DNA of 56,129 nucleotides from a virus, in the IMG/VR virus record IMGVR_UViG_3300025892_000002; one strand, given 5' to 3'. Position 1 is the stretch's first letter. Each line of letters opens with the position of its first letter. The notes under the pieces were generated by a model, which was not told where the DNA came from, searched no databases, and was given only the letters and a program-made list of their open reading frames with translations. The position numbers and the translations under genes are program-made. Shown here one piece after another: positions 23,023 to 56,129 of this stretch.

Positions 23023-23442
23023 TTAGTGACTTAAATTAAATGTAGGATCTAAATGTTTAGGATCTTCTACTTTCATTATTACTTGATCATCATACAATAA
23101 AAGCATTTTAACTTCTTTATATTGTATCTTTTGACCAGCATGTTTTGCGTAACAGATGTAATCTCCTTCTTTACACCAAGGTCCTTTAGGAAATTTATCT
23201 GTATCATTATAAGCAAGATTACCTATTTTAATAACTTTTCCTACAGTTGTTAAATAAGACATATCTTCTTTTGTTGAGTTTGGTATTAATATACCACCTT
23301 TAGTTTTTTCTTTTACTGAGACAGGTCTTACGAGTACATGAAAACCTGGAAGTTCAGGGAGGACATCTGGAGTATCTAAATATTCTTCATCTGTTATCCA
23401 TATGTCATTCTTTATAGTGTTACCTAAATGTGCCTGTTGCAT
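23023..23442 (-). CDS. GroES/Cpn10-like co-chaperonin, 139 aa
   Basis: FHVLVRPVSVKEKTKGGILIP (mobile-loop-like), GKVIKIG, KEGDYICYAKHAG, LLLYDDQVIMKVED parallel E. coli GroES blocks. Confidence 0.65.
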   Translation of the reverse strand: MQQAHLGNTIKNDIWITDEEYLDTPDVLPELPGFHVLVRPVSVKEKTKGGILIPNSTKEDMSYLTTVGKVIKIGNLAYNDTDKFPKGPWCKEGDYICYAKHAGQKIQYKEVKMLLLYDDQVIMKVEDPKHLDPTFNLSH

Positions 23443-23636
23443 TAGTCATCCTCTTCATCATACATACGTTTTTGTATTATGCTTTTTAAATTATTACGAG
23501 ACCATTCAATTCCTTGAATAAGTCCTACGAGTTGCCTATAGTGAGCAAAGTCTTCTGCTTGCCCACTAGAGACAGTTAATCTTAGTTTAGTGAGTTCATT
23601 ATCATATTCTTTAACAACCTCATCCCATATATCCAT
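23442..23636 (-). CDS. Small acidic helical protein, 64 aa
   Basis: ORF shares base 23442 with the next gene. Confidence 0.45.
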   Translation of the reverse strand: MDIWDEVVKEYDNELTKLRLTVSSGQAEDFAHYRQLVGLIQGIEWSRNNLKSIIQKRMYDEEDD

Positions 23637-23645
23637 ACTCAGAAA

Positions 23646-23720
23646 TTAAATCTCTGCACATGCATAGCAGTTAATCTCTAGTCCTACAGATACTTCTTTT
23701 ACGACTGGTGATTTCCACAT
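23646..23720 (-). CDS. pqqA: Unlisted 24-codon ORF encoding a PqqA-like peptide: MWKSPVVKEVSVGLEINCYACAEI
   Basis: Hand translation: ATG 23720-23718, TAA 23648-23646. AAGGGAG Shine-Dalgarno 8 nt upstream. Matches recalled PqqA sequences (W-x-x-P...E...G-x-E-[VI]-x-x-Y; M. extorquens MKWAAPIVSEICVGMEVTSYESAEI...). Confidence 0.6.
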   Translation of the reverse strand: MWKSPVVKEVSVGLEINCYACAEI

Positions 23721-23721
23721 G

Positions 23722-23934
23722 TTATCTTCTCCCTTTAGTTGGTGCTGGATATTTCCAGCTAAATGGATCATATTGATTTAGCACACCTTGTTGTGGTGTC
23801 ATACCTACAGCTCCATCATCATCTGATCTTTTAGTAAAGTCGCCATACATGCCACCATCACCATTTTTCACATGTTCAGGATAACCATTAGTAACACCTT
23901 TCTTAACAGGATATGCTTTATTTCCTATTGGCAT
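23722..23934 (-). CDS. Small Gly/Pro-rich late protein, 70 aa
   Basis: ORF shares base 23934 with the portal gene. Confidence 0.45.
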   Translation of the reverse strand: MPIGNKAYPVKKGVTNGYPEHVKNGDGGMYGDFTKRSDDDGAVGMTPQQGVLNQYDPFSWKYPAPTKGRR

Positions 23935-26477
23935 TATTGATCATCTCCTTTCATTTCTTCTTTTAATAATTCTGACATGACATCAACAAGTTTAAAACTT
24001 CTTTGTCTATCATCCAGATTCTCCATTTGAGTAACTTTTTCTAAAGCACTCATACGAATTTTTTCCATATCTATTTCAGCTTTCTGATCTGCTAATGCAG
24101 CCTTTGCCATTATATCTAAAGACTTCATTGTCTCTTTACTTGCTCTATCAAGATCACCTTTTTCTTTTTTCATTATAGCAGATTGACCTTCTTTTCCTGC
24201 ATCTACCATTAACTTAGCTTCTTCTAGTTCTAGTTTCTGTGCATCTAATGCAGAGTCTGCAGAATGTTTAGCCATAGTAGCTTGTAGTTTTTGTTTCTCT
24301 AATTCTACCTTTGCTGTTTCTAATGCAACCATTTGTTGTTCAGGTGACTCTGCTTGACCTGCAGCCATATTAGCATTCATTACTTGTTGAGCTGCAGCAG
24401 CCATAGCTGATTCTGCTACAGAAGGATTCTGTTGTTGTTCTGGTGGTAGTTGTTCCATTGCCATTCTTGCCATACCATTCATTTGCTCTTGGTATTTTAA
24501 TACAGAATGTTCTTGTATATTAGATTCAAGTATTGGTTTTAATCTAGCCATAATAGGATTAGCACCATTCTGTGGATCTTGTAGATACATCATCTTAACT
24601 TGTATATGTGAGTCATGGTTCTGTCCTGGAAATGCTGCAATAGGTATACCTTTAGTTGCAGCCATTATATCAGATACAGGATCTAATTGTTGTGGTTCTT
24701 GTTTAGGTGGTAGTATTTGTTCTAAGTTAGGTAGATTAGCAGCACTTAGTATAGTTCTATTAAGTGCTTCAAGGTTGAACATACCAGGAGGTGATTGCTG
24801 TGCCATTTGTAAAGCCATCTGGGAAAGCATCATCCTATGTGCATTTGAAGGAATGTTAGGATCAGATACTGGAATAATATCTACTCTTCCATCAAAATCT
24901 TGCTTGAAGATATTCTTCTCTGCAAAAGGTATTTCATATGGATACTCAGAAGGAAGATAATCATAATTTATCTGTGCAAGTATTTTAAATTCATCTCTTT
25001 GAGATTTGTGTAATCTCTTGTGAATAGCAGAGAAGAACTTACTTGATGCTTCTAGTAAAGCCATAGTAGTACCAACAGGTCCATAAGATGATGCATCAGA
25101 AACAATTTGTTCTGTACTATCAGCAAACTTTTGACCTGCAGAGGTTATGAAGCCAAGCATATTAAACAATGTTTGGGAAGGTTCTTTATAAGGGAGAGAG
25201 ATTATAGCCTTGTTAAGATCTTGCCCTGTTGCTTCAACTTCTTTAAACTCACCTGGACTGATAGGATCATTGTCACCAACAATTCTAACACCCTTTGCTT
25301 TGAATCCTCCTGGTAGGTTTGCGAATTGACCTGCATCCACTAGACTTCTCATGGCTGCTGTTGCAGTCATAGTTAAGTTTCCTAAGAAGTGCATGAGACC
25401 AAATCCATAGAAACTAAAGCCTGGCACGAATCTATAATGAACAAAGTGTGACACTTTCTCCTGATTCTTATCATCCTTCTTATAGTTTCTACGAATACTT
25501 AAAATTTGTTGTGACTGCTCTTCTACTGTAACAATATAAGGAAGAGCATAGTCTTCTTCTATTTCTAAATAACAATGTTGTTCTAGTAATGTATACTGTG
25601 GATCATTTGTTCCTGTTGGAGACAAACCAATAATAGTATCCATTTTAGAAGAAAAAGATGTAGGTTCTGGATTAGTTGCTTCTGGTAACTCTATATCTCT
25701 ATAGATACCTGTACGTATATCTCTTGCAAGATCAACAGGACTTCTATATATTACATGTGTATATCTATCTGCTTTACGTAGATTAGATGCATAGTAAGAT
25801 ACATAGAACTGATCAATAGGAACAAACTCAGATACTGGTCTTTTAAGATTAGCATCATAGTATACTTTCTTAAAGGCTGATCCTATTAATGGTAAATGGA
25901 ATAACATTCTTTCCATCTCATCAAAGTATTCAGGCATCTGTTCTGTTGTTTGATAATTCATAAAGTCTTGCACACGATTAGATTGGTCTTCTCTTTCAGG
26001 AGTAGACTTTCCTACTATCTGTGCTTTTACTGGACCTGATGGTGGAAACAATTCTTGTATAGCTTTTGCTTGAAACTTAACAGCAGATTCTATTAACATT
26101 GGATGAACTGCTGTACACGCACCTTCAAATGGTTCTGATGTTTCTTGTATCTTTAATCCTAGTAGATCAAAACCTTTTTCAAACATAGCTTCCCACTCAG
26201 AGCGAGATTCTTTATCTGATGTATAATTATCTACTATAGTAGATGCTACTTCTTCTTGTTCAGCATCATCTAGTTTATCTGTAATATCTCCATACCATTC
26301 TTGTATAGATTCTTCAGCTTCCATTTCTATTGTTGATTCTGTAAAGTCTACAGTCATACCACCATCTTCTTCAGGATAAAAAGCAGGACCTTCTTCCATT
26401 ACTTCTTGTTGTGGCATATCTATTATGTTAGAAATTTCTTCTGGTATTTGTTCAAATGGATTTCGTTCTGTTGCCAT
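23934..26477 (-). CDS. Portal protein, 847 aa, with long C-terminal coiled-coil extension
   Basis: Largest head-module ORF near TerL; acidic N-terminus; last ~200 aa are Ala/Gln/Glu/Lys-rich helix, as in P22-type portal barrels. Confidence 0.7.
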   Translation of the reverse strand: MATERNPFEQIPEEISNIIDMPQQEVMEEGPAFYPEEDGGMTVDFTESTIEMEAEESIQEWYGDITDKLDDAEQEEVASTIVDNYTSDKESRSEWEAMFEKGFDLLGLKIQETSEPFEGACTAVHPMLIESAVKFQAKAIQELFPPSGPVKAQIVGKSTPEREDQSNRVQDFMNYQTTEQMPEYFDEMERMLFHLPLIGSAFKKVYYDANLKRPVSEFVPIDQFYVSYYASNLRKADRYTHVIYRSPVDLARDIRTGIYRDIELPEATNPEPTSFSSKMDTIIGLSPTGTNDPQYTLLEQHCYLEIEEDYALPYIVTVEEQSQQILSIRRNYKKDDKNQEKVSHFVHYRFVPGFSFYGFGLMHFLGNLTMTATAAMRSLVDAGQFANLPGGFKAKGVRIVGDNDPISPGEFKEVEATGQDLNKAIISLPYKEPSQTLFNMLGFITSAGQKFADSTEQIVSDASSYGPVGTTMALLEASSKFFSAIHKRLHKSQRDEFKILAQINYDYLPSEYPYEIPFAEKNIFKQDFDGRVDIIPVSDPNIPSNAHRMMLSQMALQMAQQSPPGMFNLEALNRTILSAANLPNLEQILPPKQEPQQLDPVSDIMAATKGIPIAAFPGQNHDSHIQVKMMYLQDPQNGANPIMARLKPILESNIQEHSVLKYQEQMNGMARMAMEQLPPEQQQNPSVAESAMAAAAQQVMNANMAAGQAESPEQQMVALETAKVELEKQKLQATMAKHSADSALDAQKLELEEAKLMVDAGKEGQSAIMKKEKGDLDRASKETMKSLDIMAKAALADQKAEIDMEKIRMSALEKVTQMENLDDRQRSFKLVDVMSELLKEEMKGDDQ

Positions 26478-43742: not shown

Positions 43743-45680
43743 ATGGCATCATTAATGGGTAGTAATTATTTACCTACTGAGTACCAATCATTCATTCACA
43801 TGTCTAGGTATTCTAGATGGATAGAAGAAGAAGGTAGAAGAGAAACATGGAGTGAAACAGTAGGAAGACTTGTGTCTTTCTTTAAGGATCATATAGATAC
43901 TAACTATGAAGGAGGAGTTACAGATAAAGAGTGGAATGAAATAGAAGAATCTATTTTATCTCTTGAAGTTATGCCAAGCATGAGAGCTCTTATGACTGCA
44001 GGTAAAGCATTAGATAGAGAACATGTATCAGGTTATAACTGTTCTTATATTCCTATTGATAGCCCAAGAGCATTTGATGAGGTGTTATATATTCTTATGA
44101 ATGGTACTGGTGTAGGCTTCTCTGTTGAGAGACAGTATGCTGACAAGCTACCTACTGTACCTGATGTAGAGTTTGAGTACATAGATAGTGTTGTTTCTGT
44201 TACTGATTCTAAAGATGGATGGGCAAGAGCCTATAGAGATTTGATAGCTTACCTATACACAGGTAGAGTACCTAAGATAAATGTATCTAAGGTTAGACCT
44301 GCAGGTGCTAGACTTAAAACATTTGGTGGTAGAGCTAGTGGTCCTCAACCTTTGGTAGATTTGTTTGACTTTACTATTACTAAGTTTAAAGAATCAAGAG
44401 GTAGAAAACTTTCCTCTATGGAATGTCATGACATAGTATGTAAGACAGGTGAGGTTGTAGTTGTAGGTGGAGTACGTAGGTCAGCTCTTATATCTTTATC
44501 TAACTTATCAGACCAACGTATACGTACAGCTAAGACAGGTGAGTGGTGGTCAACTAATCCAGAGAGAGCTTTAGCTAATAACTCTGTTGCTTATACAGAG
44601 AAACCTGATCCAGGTATCTTCATGAAGGAATGGTTGTCCTTGTATGAAAGTAAGTCAGGTGAGAGAGGTATCTTTAGTAGAGCATCTGCTCAAAAGAAAG
44701 CTGCTGAGAATGGTAGAAGAGAATCTAACTGGGACTTTGGTACTAATCCTTGTAGTGAAATTATCCTTAGACCTAATCAGTTTTGTAACCTTACAGAGAT
44801 AGTAGTACGTGCTGGAGATACTATTAATACTCTTACAAGAAAGATTAAAGTAGCTACCTTACTAGGTACTATACAATCTACCTTTACTAACTTTGGCTAC
44901 CTAAGAAAAGTATGGCAAGATAATACAGAGGAAGAAAGATTACTTGGTGTATCTCTTACTGGTATTATGGATTCTGAATTACTTAATGGCAGAGAAACAG
45001 GACTTGCTAAGACATTAGAGAAACTTAAAAAGGTAGCAGTAGAGTGTAACAAAGAATATGCTGAGAAGTTTAACATCAATCAATCAACAGCTATTACTTG
45101 TGTTAAACCTTCAGGTACTGTGAGTCAGTTAGTTGATAGTGCTAGTGGTATACATGCTAGACATAATCCTTATTACATTAGAACAGTAAGAGGTGATAAC
45201 AAAGACCCATTGACTGAGTTTATGAAGTCATGTGGTATACCTAATGAGCCTGATGTAATGAAGACAGAACATACTACTGTATTCTCTTTTCCTATGAAAG
45301 CTCCTTCAGGTTCAGTATGTAGGACAGACATGACAGCTATAGAACAGTTAGAGATATGGAAAACATATGCCAAGCATTGGTGTGAACATAAACCTTCTGT
45401 AACTATTAGTGTTAAGGAAGAAGAGTGGGTTCCAGTAGGTGCATGGTGTTGGGAAAACTTTGAGTATCTAAGTGGTGTATCTTTCTTACCTTTCTCTGAC
45501 CATACATATCAACAAGCACCTTATCAAGATATAGATGAGAAAACTTATAAAGAGTTAGTAAAAGCTATGCCTTCTAGTATTAACTGGGCTAAGTTAAAAG
45601 ACTTTGAAAAAGAAGATAACACGAAAGGATCACAAGAACTTGCATGTACTGCAGGGGTATGTGAGTTGGTGGATATATAA
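43743..45680 (+). CDS. nrdJ: Class II (adenosylcobalamin-type) ribonucleotide reductase, 645 aa
   Basis: N-terminal YSRW..EEGRRETWSETV, NCSY, active-site TNPCSEI, C-terminal CTAGVCE pair. Confidence 0.8.
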   Translation: MASLMGSNYLPTEYQSFIHMSRYSRWIEEEGRRETWSETVGRLVSFFKDHIDTNYEGGVTDKEWNEIEESILSLEVMPSMRALMTAGKALDREHVSGYNCSYIPIDSPRAFDEVLYILMNGTGVGFSVERQYADKLPTVPDVEFEYIDSVVSVTDSKDGWARAYRDLIAYLYTGRVPKINVSKVRPAGARLKTFGGRASGPQPLVDLFDFTITKFKESRGRKLSSMECHDIVCKTGEVVVVGGVRRSALISLSNLSDQRIRTAKTGEWWSTNPERALANNSVAYTEKPDPGIFMKEWLSLYESKSGERGIFSRASAQKKAAENGRRESNWDFGTNPCSEIILRPNQFCNLTEIVVRAGDTINTLTRKIKVATLLGTIQSTFTNFGYLRKVWQDNTEEERLLGVSLTGIMDSELLNGRETGLAKTLEKLKKVAVECNKEYAEKFNINQSTAITCVKPSGTVSQLVDSASGIHARHNPYYIRTVRGDNKDPLTEFMKSCGIPNEPDVMKTEHTTVFSFPMKAPSGSVCRTDMTAIEQLEIWKTYAKHWCEHKPSVTISVKEEEWVPVGAWCWENFEYLSGVSFLPFSDHTYQQAPYQDIDEKTYKELVKAMPSSINWAKLKDFEKEDNTKGSQELACTAGVCELVDI

Positions 45681-45920: not shown

Positions 45921-46688
45921 ATGAATACAGTTTATATAGGGTATGACCCCAAAGAAGATACAGCATATGAAGTTTTAAAGTTTACCATAGAAAGAATATC
46001 AGGTAATAACATACGTGTTGTACCATTAAGAAAAGATCTATTAGAACTTACAGGAATGTACAAACGTAAGTCTGAGTTAATAAAAGGACAGCCTTATGAT
46101 GTTATAGATGGCAGACCTTTCTCAACTGAGTTTAGCTTTAGTAGGTTTTTAGTACCTGCTTTAAATTTATATGAAGGTAAAGCTTTATTTATGGATTCAG
46201 ATATGTATTTACGTGCTGATGTAAATGAGCTATTTGAAATGTGTGATATGGATTACTATCCTGTATGGTGTGTTCATCATGACTACAACCCAAAAAATAA
46301 AACAAAAATGGATGGTAAAGAACAACACCAATACAACAGAAAGAATTGGTCTAGTCTTATAATGTTTAATTGTGGACATAGTGAGAATAGAAAGCTTACA
46401 CCTGAAGTAGTTAATACACAAACAGGTAGATGGTTACATGGCTTTGGTTGGTTGCCTGATAAAGAAGCAGACATAGGTAGAATACCTGAAGAATGGAATT
46501 GGTTAGATGGTCATTCACCACCAGACATGGATGCAAAGAATGTACACTTTACTACAGGTGGTCCTTGGTTTAAAGATTGGAAACCAAGAGGAGAAGTAGA
46601 AGGTAAGTATGCTGTTGAATGGTGTAATGATGCAGACTACTTAAAGCTTAAAGGTATAATTAAAATGGATAAGGACTACATGATATGA
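45921..46688 (+). CDS. Glycosyltransferase (GT-A fold, GT8-like), 255 aa
   Basis: FSFSRFLVP, DxD motif FMDSDMY (D92-S-D94), HFTTGGPW. Confidence 0.6.
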   Translation: MNTVYIGYDPKEDTAYEVLKFTIERISGNNIRVVPLRKDLLELTGMYKRKSELIKGQPYDVIDGRPFSTEFSFSRFLVPALNLYEGKALFMDSDMYLRADVNELFEMCDMDYYPVWCVHHDYNPKNKTKMDGKEQHQYNRKNWSSLIMFNCGHSENRKLTPEVVNTQTGRWLHGFGWLPDKEADIGRIPEEWNWLDGHSPPDMDAKNVHFTTGGPWFKDWKPRGEVEGKYAVEWCNDADYLKLKGIIKMDKDYMI

Positions 46689-49012
46689 AGATAAATTTTG
46701 TTACTTCTTTTAATGAAGATATTTATAAAATTGCAGGACATCATTTACTTAAATCAATTAAAGATAATTGGAAACCTGATATAAATGTAACATGTTACTA
46801 TCATAATTTAGATTTAAAAAACTATTCTATACTAGAAAATAACTCAGTATCTTTTAGAAAATTAGAAAAGATAGAAGATTATAAACTATTTAAAGAAGTA
46901 AATATAACACATGATGGTACAGAGAAAGGACAAATTCCTTACAACTGGAAATTAGATGCTACTAAATGGTGCAATAAAGTATTTGCTTTGACTGAGAAAG
47001 CTTTTGAATTAGCAGAAGAATCTAAAGATGCAGGTTGGTTGATATGGATTGATGCTGATTCTATGTGTCAAAAAAGATTAGTACCTGAAGACATACTTAA
47101 TATGTTAAATGATGATTGTGATATAGCTTATTCAGGTGTAAGAGATTATCCTGATGGTTCTAGGTATCTTGATACATCTTTCATGGCTTTTAATTTAAAT
47201 AAGAAACCTGCTCTTGATTTACTTGGTGACTTACGTGGTGCTTATAACTCAGGAGAACTACTACAGTACAGAGAATGGCATGACTCTTTCTTAATGGAAA
47301 GGCTTTTAAATATTTATAAAGCTCATGGTATGCATATAGAATCTGTTGAACAAATTAAAGATTACATTACACACTTTCAAGGTATAGAAAATATAAGTCT
47401 TAATCCTATTAGAGATAATGATGGTAATAGATTAGTTGCTTTATCAGAAGATAAAACATCTCAAGACATTATGCCTACAAGATATAAACAATTAGCTGAT
47501 GTTATTAGAGAATATAAACCTAAGTCTATAATAGAAGTAGGGACATGGAATGGTGGTCGTGCTATTGAAATGGCTCTTGCTGCTTTTGAAAGTCAAGATG
47601 AACTATTGTATAGAGGGTTTGATTTATTTGAAGATGGTACTTTAGAAACAGATTCAGAAGAATTTAATCTTAAAGCACACAATACTCAGAGTGCTGTTAT
47701 AAAAAGATTACAAGACTTCAGGGCTAGGATGATGGAGAAAAAGAAAGTCTTTACATTTGAGTTAGGGAAAGGTAACTCAAAAGATATACTAAAAGATCGT
47801 ACAGATTTAGATGCTGATCTTGTTTTAATAGGTGGTGGTAATAGTATAGCTACTACAAGAAGTGACTATGATAATTTAAAACATAATCCTATTATTGTTA
47901 TTGATAATTTCTTTAGAGAAGATGAAGAAAAAATAAATGCTCCTGAACAATACCAAGGAACAAATAAAATTTTTGATAGTTTACCTAAAGGAAAAAAAGA
48001 TGGAGTACGTAGATGGGTATTACCTTCTCAAGATAAAGTAAGAGGTGGTGGTTTTACACATCTTACTGTTATACTTACTGATAAAAAATTACAAGATATA
48101 CCTAAAGGTTTATTAAGTGTTCCTATTGTAGTACATCCTAGAGATTGTGTACCTAAAGATTTTATTAGGGATAACATTAGAACTAATTTAAAACTTATAA
48201 AGACTTGGCTAGGTAAATTTCCTATGCATCAAGGTAATGTTACACTTGTATCAGGTGGTCCTTATTTAAATATACCTAAATTAAAAGCACATATAAAAAA
48301 TAATCCTGATAGTAAAATTGTATGTGTTAAACATTCTTATCCTACACTTATTAATAATGGTATACTTCCTTGGGCATGTATTGTACTAGACCCTAGACCT
48401 ATTACAGGTACAAGTACACATGGTGTAGTAAGAAAAGATTTATTTAAAAAGGTAGAAAAGAAAACTAAATTCTTTGTAGCTTCCATGACTGATCCTTCTG
48501 TTACTGAACATTTAATATCTAAAGGTGCAGAAATACATGGATGGCATGCATTTACAGAATCATTACGTGATCCAGAAGAACAGAAGAAAGCAGTACATAA
48601 TAATTCTGTTACTCTTAATCCTGCTATAGGTATACCTCAAGGTGCTACTCTTATTACAGGTGGTACATGTGCTGCTATGAGAGCTTTAGGTATCTTTCAT
48701 ACTATGGGATTCAGACACTTTGACTTGTTTGGATTTGATTGTAGCATGGAAGAACCTACTAAAGAACAACAGAAAGAAACTACAGGTGCTGAAGATGAAG
48801 AACCTAAACCTAAATATTTTAAAGTAGGTATAGGAGATACACAGTATTGGACTACAGGAGAACTTCTTGCTATGGCACAAGACTGTGAAAGAACATTTGC
48901 TAATCCACCTATGGAAATGAATTTAAATTTCTATGGTAAAGGTACATTGGTAGCTGCTCTATGGAATTTACAACCTAAACCAAAAACATTTGAGGAAACA
49001 TTTAATGGATAA
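46685..49012 (+). CDS. Three-domain 775-aa protein: GT-A-like transferase + class I SAM methyltransferase (TylF/CmcI-like) + DUF115/MptE/Maf-like transferase
   Basis: WLIWIDADSM (DxD, aa ~118-127). IIEVGTWNGGRAIEMAL...GFDLFE (~47468-47914). VSGGPYLN...VCVKHSYPTLINNGILPWACIVLDP...GGTCAAMRALGIFHTMGFRHFDLFGFD (~48167-48919). Confidence 0.55.
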   Translation: MKINFVTSFNEDIYKIAGHHLLKSIKDNWKPDINVTCYYHNLDLKNYSILENNSVSFRKLEKIEDYKLFKEVNITHDGTEKGQIPYNWKLDATKWCNKVFALTEKAFELAEESKDAGWLIWIDADSMCQKRLVPEDILNMLNDDCDIAYSGVRDYPDGSRYLDTSFMAFNLNKKPALDLLGDLRGAYNSGELLQYREWHDSFLMERLLNIYKAHGMHIESVEQIKDYITHFQGIENISLNPIRDNDGNRLVALSEDKTSQDIMPTRYKQLADVIREYKPKSIIEVGTWNGGRAIEMALAAFESQDELLYRGFDLFEDGTLETDSEEFNLKAHNTQSAVIKRLQDFRARMMEKKKVFTFELGKGNSKDILKDRTDLDADLVLIGGGNSIATTRSDYDNLKHNPIIVIDNFFREDEEKINAPEQYQGTNKIFDSLPKGKKDGVRRWVLPSQDKVRGGGFTHLTVILTDKKLQDIPKGLLSVPIVVHPRDCVPKDFIRDNIRTNLKLIKTWLGKFPMHQGNVTLVSGGPYLNIPKLKAHIKNNPDSKIVCVKHSYPTLINNGILPWACIVLDPRPITGTSTHGVVRKDLFKKVEKKTKFFVASMTDPSVTEHLISKGAEIHGWHAFTESLRDPEEQKKAVHNNSVTLNPAIGIPQGATLITGGTCAAMRALGIFHTMGFRHFDLFGFDCSMEEPTKEQQKETTGAEDEEPKPKYFKVGIGDTQYWTTGELLAMAQDCERTFANPPMEMNLNFYGKGTLVAALWNLQPKPKTFEETFNG

Positions 49013-55900: not shown

Positions 55901-56129
55901 CTCCAAAAAAAGTTACTTCTAATCCCATATTATTTATAAAAGCTTGTACTCTTTGTTGAGCTGCTGTATCATTAGGATTAATAGCTAAACTTTCTAAAGC
56001 TAAAGTTGATTCAGGAAACTTTTCTAATAAAAAATTAACAGCATTCTCTTGTGGGTCTTCTACTATTGTAGCACTTGCAGCAAAAGCTGTACCATAGAGT
56101 GCTAAATTTTTAGCAACTGTAGCTATCCT
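52998..56129 (-). CDS. C-terminal ~1000 codons of the 1247-codon junction-spanning virion protein (56003-56129 duplicates 1-127)
   Basis: The track ORF 52998..55928 begins at an internal Met; the frame is open upstream to the window end. Confidence 0.8.
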   Translation of the reverse strand, partial: RIATVAKNLALYGTAFAASATIVEDPQENAVNFLLEKFPESTLALESLAINPNDTAAQQRVQAFINNMGLEVTFFGGLKGLSLTYKGIKAGTKKVIPTQLNKLLTATTSRRGMTDDVLANFVKYNAVAKNAYDTAVVESRELSKLMKKDKFDSVENIAVVNEALAGNKSALAQLPSLVKPKVIGMRKEIDDLSGYFLKENRTSGGLKVTIQDNLKTYITRTFEMFENPSYIREMKSVLKKNRKNISNNQLDRISNIGMRDISDYLINTMNLTPAQAAENINQALKNYQKGPDGIGSFLSDLAGTASSKTGSTTKGFFKRKKLDEKVKSFLGEVKDPNLNYVNAYQKLAVYKAEVDFLETLAKDMIDSGAAKESIKKGKQMFAPEDVGKFELANDVAQERLAKIFGKGPINKGSIKNPLEGLYIDPNYKQALKDGLQAINPTESSAMRSWLALKTTSQLGLTALNPATHAVNVFGNNIFMAANGFIPGTRGAVNAATFVGSKLSGLTTKNLTQKWNRYRELGITGSDVLTETIRANIKQMSRGINMYDKPSVARKLLTSPYKVTKKTLGKVIDTYQLEDDIYKIMHFENTIKYLSKAFPERSLIEIEEMAAKRTRDLMPNYLIAPKFLKKLRNKPIGDFATFAAESTRVAKNLVAYTVEDALSGNPELMSLAARRLGGMTIAGLGADVLQAKSQVMMGISDDEKEASYIVGPSFNYNVPQFYLSGVEDYKGKKVIRSVSSGSLDPFSFIKSAARFTHKILNDDEMSLEKIKNIRYEPELFKLGISMVDKTLAPFLGTSIITDSLVQAVKDVDEGNPGAAVYGVGEALLFPGVRKFIQNRAEFESQKGYIPEGERTKGRSDSLISTEYKGVPGQTDWKALLGFKVNLQDLSSSVKYNIGYDLNNINKNKKLSQLLKGIDGPILKLKKFGRNFAGDRAVTTEQDLKNAKKSDELRILRDEKNIRMYVEAYKTLGFSMEDIVKNLRNNNNIDILVNIGLNMHTPSKLTSSDIDNYQKKLKKLGINLPVEYFQKMDEATTGSKINEED
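56003..56129. repeat. Terminal duplication copy B (identical to 1-127)
   Basis: Direct read. Confidence 0.95.

Follow-up and report, generated by a model that had tools for sequence, protein, structure and literature searches.

We analyzed a 24-codon open reading frame (ORF) in the IMG/VR virus record IMGVR_UViG_3300025892_000002, a single stretch of 56,129 nucleotides that is called the window hereafter and to which all positions of the locus refer; the ORF encodes a homologue of PqqA, the precursor peptide of the cofactor pyrroloquinoline quinone (PQQ). The window begins and ends with an exact direct repeat of 127 bp (1-127 and 56003-56129) and therefore represents a complete phage genome of ~56 kb, either circularly assembled or terminally redundant. 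As read from the minus strand and from the ORF list, the pqqA micro-ORF occupies 23646..23720 on that strand, with its ATG at 23720 and its TAA at 23648-23646, and encodes MWKSPVVKEVSVGLEINCYACAEI. It lies between two conserved ORFs of the same strand that have no Pfam match, a 70-aa ORF upstream (23722..23934) and a 64-aa ORF downstream (23442..23636), and it fills the 85 nt between them almost exactly. The ATG is one base past the TAA (23724-23722) of the 70-aa ORF, the Shine-Dalgarno-like AAGGGAG (23729..23735, minus strand) is located within the end of that ORF, 8 nt 5' of the ATG, and the 64-aa ORF starts 9 nt beyond the stop of the micro-ORF. An initial annotation made from the letters alone had described the ORF, the gap, the start codon and the ribosome-binding motif in this way, and all of these details were confirmed.

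The 70-aa ORF directly follows the portal gene (23934..26477, minus strand; phrog_1216 portal, E 2.6e-37), which anchors the structural (late) module. A Cpn10/GroES-like co-chaperonin gene (23023..23442, minus strand; PF00166, 48.1 bits) sits inside this module, two genes downstream of pqqA, and is kept in all relatives. The genes on both sides of pqqA are thus viral: the portal, TerL, Cpn10, a scaffold-sized ORF and a gene resembling those of major capsid proteins on one side, and the replication module on the other. Promoter and terminator matches near the micro-ORF did not exceed the shuffled expectation, and since the micro-ORF has no transcription signals of its own, it is the position in the string of structural genes that points to late expression.

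The identity of the peptide was examined with profile models. TIGR02107, the PqqA equivalog model of NCBIfam, gave 27.3 bits against a trusted cutoff of 20 (E 2.4e-6, residues 2-22 of 24), showing that the resemblance to PqqA is not a matter of chance, while PF08042, the PqqA family of Pfam, aligned over the full length of the model with 20.2 bits (E 6.4e-4), 0.9 bit under its gathering score of 21.1. The peptide can be divided into a leader of codons 1-11 (MWKSPVVKEVS; 23688..23720, minus strand), which is the variable part among relatives and, by analogy with characterised PqqA, the predicted PqqD-binding part, and a core of codons 12-24 (VGLEINCYACAEI; 23649..23687, minus strand), which holds E15 (23676-23678) and Y19 (23664-23666). 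These two form the pair E15-I-N-C-Y19, and the E and Y of the E-x3-Y motif are the residues that PqqE cross-links in characterised systems. In its length, its W-x-x-P leader, its G-x-E-x3-Y core and its A-E-I tail, the phage peptide agrees with a 24-residue alphaproteobacterial subfamily of bacterial PqqA (TIGR02107/PF08042) that can be written VGLEINCYACA[ED]x. Throughout this subfamily, in host and phage peptides alike, the tyrosine is set in a C-Y-x-C pair, which is not known from the classic Klebsiella or Methylorubrum PqqA peptides.

No other pqq gene accompanies the micro-ORF, as had been claimed before: using queries from a host-type genome, tblastn and phmmer found no match to PqqB, PqqC, PqqD or PqqE below E 0.1 in the complete 56-kb genome, and no radical-SAM, PQQ-related or PQQ-dehydrogenase Pfam domain was found among the 20 largest ORFs of the window. 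The pqqA gene is the sole pqq gene of a complete phage genome, which does not encode a full pqqABCDE system.

Next we compared the locus among relatives gathered by their portal, 80 IMG/VR loci in which this protein is 67-100% identical. The gene order of the relatives is portal, 70-aa ORF, pqqA where present, 64-aa ORF, Cpn10 and scaffold-sized ORF, so that the 70-aa and 64-aa ORFs form the left and right borders of an insertion slot. When the portal identity was at least 83% and the contig extended past the site, the micro-ORF was found in the identical slot in 33 of 35 loci. The two others lacked it: in L031 the flanking ORFs abut, and in L034 there is a broken accessory ORF instead. At portal identities of 67-71% the 70-aa and 64-aa ORFs are adjacent and pqqA is missing (e.g. 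L045-L079), with L080 as the exception, and even a loose G-x-E-x3-Y pattern revealed no diverged PqqA-like copy in the relatives without the ORF. In some relatives an accessory ORF of ~190 aa (MANTTFKG...SENGFKQIT...), which has no Pfam match, stands between the 70-aa ORF and pqqA (L035 5953-6537, L002 4585-5148, L080 6355-6933, L086 3154-3738, and also L042); this is the ORF that is split in L034 (3269-3816), where pqqA is missing. The presence of this extra ORF marks the site as a hot spot for accessory genes.

Selection was analyzed with 35 copies, the window and 34 IMG/VR loci, which comprise 20 distinct nucleotide versions. Codons 12-19 (VGLEINCY) encode an invariant stretch of protein although 7 of these 8 codons vary synonymously, and amino-acid variation in the whole peptide is limited to positions 3, 4, 6, 7, 10, 11, 20 and 24. 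W2, P5, K8 and E9 are invariant in this portal-defined set, and so are E15 and Y19 in all 34 relatives that have the ORF. The dN/dS ratio (nonsynonymous to synonymous substitution rates, Nei-Gojobori) was 0.125 over the full peptide, with 0.575 in the leader and 0.034 in the core, where dS was ~1.07 and hence saturating, and variable sites of the core fell 3, 1 and 10 times on codon positions 1, 2 and 3. All relatives have a purine-rich AAAGGA/GGGAG motif 5' of the ATG, even where another gene lies upstream (L002, L035, L080), and the local RNA fold was not significant (z = -1.65). This pattern of substitutions, together with the non-significant RNA fold, indicates that the peptide is translated and selected as a protein, and on this sequence evidence pqqA is under purifying selection across the related viruses. 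The syntenic conservation and purifying selection that the initial annotation had asked for are both seen here, and we hold it to be nearly certain that the micro-ORF is a genuine, selected pqqA homologue.

The gene is not confined to this phage group. A DNA pattern of the VGLEINCY type matched at least 120 stretches in IMG/VR, of which 118 loci were analyzed; in sets selected by such a pattern the invariance of the core arises by construction, and the independent evidence for the core is that of the portal-defined set described above. At least 118 IMG/VR contigs bear pqqA, 57 of them in the present podovirus context and 61 in others, and clustering of the 61 loci by their neighbours gave at least seven recurrent contexts. 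PHROGs and Pfam matches confirmed the viral nature and mutual unrelatedness of several of these, among which were a T7-like podovirus with TerL and adaptor/portal (L216), T4-like myoviruses with the gp32 single-stranded DNA-binding protein (L232), with gp59 and the late-transcription coactivator (L088) or with a baseplate wedge (L229), and another TerL setting (L263). In pqqA-bearing T4-like contigs (L232, and also L282 and L311), a 406-aa protein three genes upstream of pqqA scored 605 bits with TIGR03644 ("probable ammonium transporter, marine subtype"; cutoff 514). In another viral lineage with contigs of 44-60 kb, a membrane gene of the FA_desaturase family lies directly upstream of pqqA (L250 3003-4067, and also L199 and L211); it matched PF00487 with 101 bits and no NCBIfam model, and by eye it has histidine boxes and looks AlkB-like. 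Were its product an alkane hydroxylase or one that forms alcohols, it would be a natural partner of PQQ-dependent alcohol oxidation.

In a search of protein databases for a cellular counterpart, made with the natural ORF from stop to stop (41 aa), every match was a PqqA-type peptide, and JGI had named several of them "coenzyme PQQ precursor peptide PqqA". A 24-aa peptide identical to that of the phage at 23 of 24 residues is PqqA of a Pelagibacterales metagenome-assembled genome (MAG) according to NCBI naming. Its gene has a terminator of its own and is in a chromosomal setting (polA, aroA, cmk, rpsA, pyrF, trpF), flanked by a LysR regulator and by an EmrB-family efflux pump. We then scanned one genome per GTDB species for DNA encoding VGLEINCY with a degenerate DNA pattern. 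The scan gave 107 stretches, 93 of which encode PqqA-type peptides (VGLEINCYAC type), 92 of 24 aa and one of 25 aa, and these 93 loci belong to genomes deposited as Alphaproteobacteria that form a low-GC (guanine-plus-cytosine content 0.28-0.33) and a high-GC group. The MAGs with matching peptides include GCA_030828505.1, TOBG SP94 and MarineAlpha9_Bin3, and sample 3300021958 yielded a host contig as well as a related phage contig. In about half of the 93 loci, pqqA is followed by ORFs of ~310, 265, 96 and 385 aa. In the MAG JAURCJ01 (GC 0.31) the corresponding ORFs (L155) scored above the cutoffs as PqqB (380 bits, cutoff 245), PqqC (332, cutoff 240), PqqD (68, cutoff 46) and PqqE (562, cutoff 381), and the cellular peptides encoded directly 5' of confirmed pqqBCDE are identical to the phage peptide at 22-23 of 24 residues. 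Plausible hosts with the pqq machinery, which the initial annotation had wanted to see, therefore exist. A contig from the same scan, L157 (CAZXNP010000050.1), came from a MAG labelled Anaerolineales. It has a length of 9.6 kb, a GC content of 0.33, and pqqA followed by ORFs with the sizes of structural-module genes and a p64-like start, and it is a phage contig mis-binned into the MAG.

The setting between LysR and the pump recurs as a second cellular context. In low-GC marine Alphaproteobacteria, a second, stand-alone pqqA lies between LysR and a divergently oriented EmrB-type pump of the major facilitator superfamily plus a membrane-fusion protein (L081 8956-12941, and also L082-L085, L095, L099, L100, L103, L114, L115, L121, L125, L130 and L179), and this unit was found in at least 10 species-level genomes. 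JAURCJ01 carries such a stand-alone copy (L099) in addition to its operon. Many cellular genomes have two or three pqqA copies (L161/L163, L131/L158 and others); the MAG CAJWSU01 (L102, L122, L130) has two operon-type pqqA genes with different leader types and a stand-alone copy, reflecting either a mixed bin or true multiplicity.

The stand-alone copies are the closest to the phage gene. At the DNA level it shares 85-88% identity with the stand-alone copies L121, L114 and L099, and 76-77% with operon copies; the phage and host alleles differ at 9-18 of 75 nt. The similarity stops at the gene with none in the flanks, and two viral peptides are identical to host stand-alone copies. The phage pqqA thus appears to be host-derived, a stand-alone host copy being its likely source. 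The GC content of the phage, ~0.33, matches the 0.28-0.33 of the low-GC hosts, and from these similarities we infer that uncultured low-GC marine Alphaproteobacteria are the hosts. The window contains no tRNA gene that could have aided the host assignment. PolA of the host contig had its matches solely among proteins of MAGs, under the labels Pelagibacterales (92%), Alphaproteobacteria (85%), Rickettsiales (74%) and MarineAlpha9 (65%), no cultured relative of the host lineage was found by PolA at 65% identity or more, and no cultured Pelagibacter genome was matched in the GTDB scan.

Cultured Pelagibacter or HIMB59 had been considered as the host, and this candidate was dropped when PolA returned uncultured MAG labels only. 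The portal is ~41% identical to those of the Pelagibacter phages HTVC023P and HTVC027P, ~40% identical to those of the Roseobacter phages CRP-901 and CRP-902, and 41.6% identical to that of phage DSL-LC04, and megablast of a 6-kb region against GenBank phages gave no match, i.e., no GenBank phage is close in DNA. Nor did the peptide itself match any GenBank phage by tblastn with E values up to 10, and the cultured relatives HTVC023P, HTVC027P, CRP-901 and CRP-902 therefore have no near-identical copy. An uncultured host lineage without a match in cultured Pelagibacter fits with cultured pelagiphage relatives that lack the gene; the use of PQQ as a vitamin supplement in SAR11 media fits too, and is suggestive only. 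"Clade X" alphaproteobacterial MAGs, formerly labelled Rickettsiales, have the most highly expressed marine genes for XoxF5, a lanthanide- and PQQ-dependent methanol dehydrogenase (PMC11996626). A direct link of our hosts to "Clade X" was rejected as a finding, because it rests on shared MAG labels only, and we retain it only as a hypothesis.

Comparison of viral with cellular peptides revealed both a correspondence and a systematic difference. The leader types of the phages mirror those of the hosts (KSPVV.. and KKPEI..) on an identical core, as one would expect of a peptide that has to be recognised by the PqqD and PqqE of the host. On the other hand, among the matches listed, K8 is found in 61 and S11 in 41 of the 77 unique viral peptides, while the host alleles mostly have R8 and have A11 in all 44 unique peptides. 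The phage copy thus differs from bacterial PqqA in that it occurs in a virus without pqqB-E and in that viral alleles favour K8 and S11. The bias may have arisen because PqqD/PqqE recognition was tuned, or because the viral copies share an ancestor.

PQQ is made from PqqA by a pathway in which PqqD binds the PqqA leader, PqqE, a radical S-adenosylmethionine (SAM) enzyme, cross-links Glu to Tyr, and proteolysis, PqqB and PqqC complete the cofactor. PqqA is consumed one per cofactor and is the only component of the pathway that is destroyed for each PQQ made. The initial annotation had offered three functions for the phage peptide, a boost of the host's PQQ supply, a decoy, and a substrate for a different modification, and of these the sequence comparisons favour the first. 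We consider it probable, with moderate confidence, that the phage pqqA is an auxiliary metabolic gene which supplies the consumable PQQ precursor to host PqqD, PqqE, PqqB and PqqC in a lytic-type marine podovirus. Under this scheme, pqqA would be transcribed as part of the string of structural (late) genes, translation would start from its own Shine-Dalgarno site, and the 24-residue peptide would be bound via its leader by the host chaperone PqqD and cross-linked from E15 to Y19 by host PqqE. After trimming, host PqqB and PqqC would finish PQQ. Because PqqA alone is destroyed per cofactor, the phage copy would maintain or increase the amount of precursor when transcription of the host falls off, the host machinery outlasting it, and the sustained PQQ-dependent periplasmic dehydrogenases would deliver respiratory energy for phage production. 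In this scheme, late expression, maturation of the peptide by host enzymes, an effect on the PQQ level or on phage fitness, and the identity of the host's PQQ-dependent enzymes are presumed. The gene has several attributes expected of an auxiliary metabolic gene, being located inside a viral genome, having a host-like homologue (85-88% identical in DNA, 23 of 24 residues in protein) and being under purifying selection, and the identical core with host-matching leaders is what a true substrate needs, which makes a mere binder less likely.

Several observations weigh against supply of the precursor as the function. First, the gene is dispensable, being missing from L031, L034 and nearly all relatives at 67-71% portal identity. 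Its absence from 2 of the 35 close relatives and from most distant ones is the normal gain-and-loss pattern of an accessory gene. Second, the systematic difference in K8/S11 between viral peptides and those of host operons could mean an altered rather than an identical function. Third, no PQQ-dependent dehydrogenase was found in the phage (20 largest ORFs) or beside the host pqq loci examined, and the energy benefit to the phage is for this reason a conjecture. Fourth, of the host copies it is the stand-alone one, adjacent to LysR and the EmrB-type pump, that is nearest to the phage gene, and the host assignment has sequence similarity as its only basis. Two other explanations stay alive because of the K8/S11 bias and the kinship with the LysR/EmrB-linked copy.

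One is that the phage has copied a role outside PQQ synthesis that is common to the host stand-alone paralogue, for example that of a regulatory or exported peptide or of a substrate for another modification. That the stand-alone copies are the nearest to the phage gene in both DNA and protein, and that in at least 10 species-level genomes they constitute a transcription unit of their own with a terminator between LysR and the EmrB-family pump, speaks for this idea. Nevertheless, the core of the stand-alone copy is identical to that of the operon copy in the same genome (L099 compared with L155), no alternative maturase was seen beside the stand-alone copies, and a stand-alone extra pqqA that feeds PQQ synthesis is well known in methylotrophs (PMC9851590), so we regard this explanation as unlikely. 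The other is that the peptide is a decoy or inhibitor that binds PqqD or PqqE, is poorly processed and shuts down PQQ synthesis, for example sparing SAM and reducing power or altering the periplasmic redox state. The virus-typical substitutions K8 and S11, with A11 always found in hosts, are near the core, and the leader evolves much faster than the core, both of which speak for a decoy. But a pure binder would not need both E15 and Y19, and the whole VGLEINCY core including these residues is invariant and host-identical in the portal-defined relatives, which were examined with a looser pattern; moreover, some viral peptides are identical to host copies, and a late inhibitor of a slow cofactor pathway would bring little obvious gain. 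We therefore think a decoy quite improbable.

The selection data effectively exclude the two remaining explanations. If pqqA were a neutral passenger, picked up not long ago as a piece of host DNA and without function for the phage, the acceptance of other accessory DNA by the slot (the ~190-aa ORF in L002, L035, L042, L080 and L086) and the loss of pqqA in L031 and L034 would be easily understood, but the gene is retained across portals that differ by up to 17%, and by 34% in L080, the core protein is almost unchanged despite a core dS of ~1.07, the ribosome-binding motif is kept in every context, and pqqA occurs in several unrelated phage lineages, all of which makes a passenger very improbable. 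An intergenic RNA element or a chance ORF, which the shortness of an ORF of a size that gene callers usually skip might suggest, has a negligible probability in view of the codon periodicity of the substitutions, the curated model matched above its cutoff, the non-significant RNA fold and the chance-level promoter and terminator matches. What the initial annotation had listed as speaking against its proposal, namely the lack of a PqqA-model hit, the loss of the micro-ORF in close relatives with conserved flanking genes, or the lack of a host with PqqE/PqqD, was not encountered in a damaging form.

That annotation had further regarded a phage-borne pqqA as undescribed, and in this point it was mistaken. 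PqqA has been reported beside methanol dehydrogenase in Methylophilaceae viruses of Lake Baikal (Coutinho et al. 2020, PMC7678222), viral pqqA, pqqD and pqqE are listed in a 2026 virome study of reservoir sediments (PMC13188868), and IMG automatically annotates phage-context copies as PqqA. In both the Baikal and the reservoir viruses, as here, the precursor gene is phage-borne while the rest of the pathway comes from the host, and both were read as boosting PQQ-dependent metabolism. The Baikal virus, however, has a freshwater methylotroph as its host and encodes methanol dehydrogenase, whereas the phage analyzed here probably infects marine low-GC Alphaproteobacteria, and no PQQ-dependent enzyme was found among its 20 largest ORFs. 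In addition, unlike in the Baikal and reservoir viruses, pqqA is here spread over several phage lineages. In the literature searched, we found nothing on pqqA in pelagiphages, no paper combining AEGEAN-169 with PQQ, and no description of the marine alphaproteobacterial subfamily, of the multi-lineage spread in phages, of an origin from a stand-alone copy, or of a virus-typical allele. The present gene is a well-supported further example of virus-borne pqqA, and not the first of its sort.

Extra precursor genes away from pqqBCDE are also known in bacteria. A methylotroph has five pqqA copies, three of them stand-alone, PQQ producers often have such extra copies, whose expression follows the PQQ output, and a cell-free extract of Gluconobacter converts added PqqA to PQQ at 70-80% (PMC9851590). 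Like the stand-alone bacterial genes, the phage copy would be an additional source of precursor, with the difference that it is carried by a virus and delivered only during infection. In its logic, though not by homology, the arrangement resembles that of cyanophage psbA, encoding the D1 protein of photosystem II, in that the phage would encode only the component that is turned over rapidly or consumed and leave the stable machinery to the host. The pathway is a different one, and the function of psbA during infection has been shown experimentally, while that of pqqA is here suggested by comparison.

The genes identified in the structural module are TerL, the portal, the Cpn10/GroES-like gene and a large tail protein with DUF7483, and the replication module includes a primase-helicase, a family A DNA polymerase, a class II ribonucleotide reductase, an MptE-like protein and a methyltransferase. 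The class II (B12-dependent) ribonucleotide reductase (43743-45680, plus strand) and the 775-aa protein with the MptE-like domain (46685-49012, plus strand) are unrelated to pqqA.

Periplasmic dehydrogenases of alcohols and sugars use PQQ as their cofactor, and among them are the lanthanide-dependent methanol dehydrogenases, whose transcripts are the dominant ones for methanol oxidation in the ocean. One may tentatively picture pqqA as a widespread marine auxiliary gene that has been repeatedly acquired by unrelated podoviruses and myoviruses of an abundant, uncultured low-GC alphaproteobacterial lineage, possibly "Clade X". Infection would then prop up PQQ-dependent oxidation of one-carbon (C1) compounds and alcohols, K8/S11 would be tuned to out-compete host PqqA for PqqD, and the presence of pqqA and the type of its leader could serve to place phages with particular clades of PQQ-producing hosts; this combined picture is speculative and, as a whole, doubtful. 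If phages of abundant marine Alphaproteobacteria routinely bring PqqA with them, the precursor supply would be a real bottleneck of PQQ synthesis in infected cells, and viral infection would influence marine C1 and alcohol oxidation. In that case a 75-nt gene that is usually missed by gene callers would serve as a practical marker tying uncultured phages to PQQ-producing hosts, and the dozens of natural leader variants on an invariant core would provide a clean natural system for leader recognition by PqqD.

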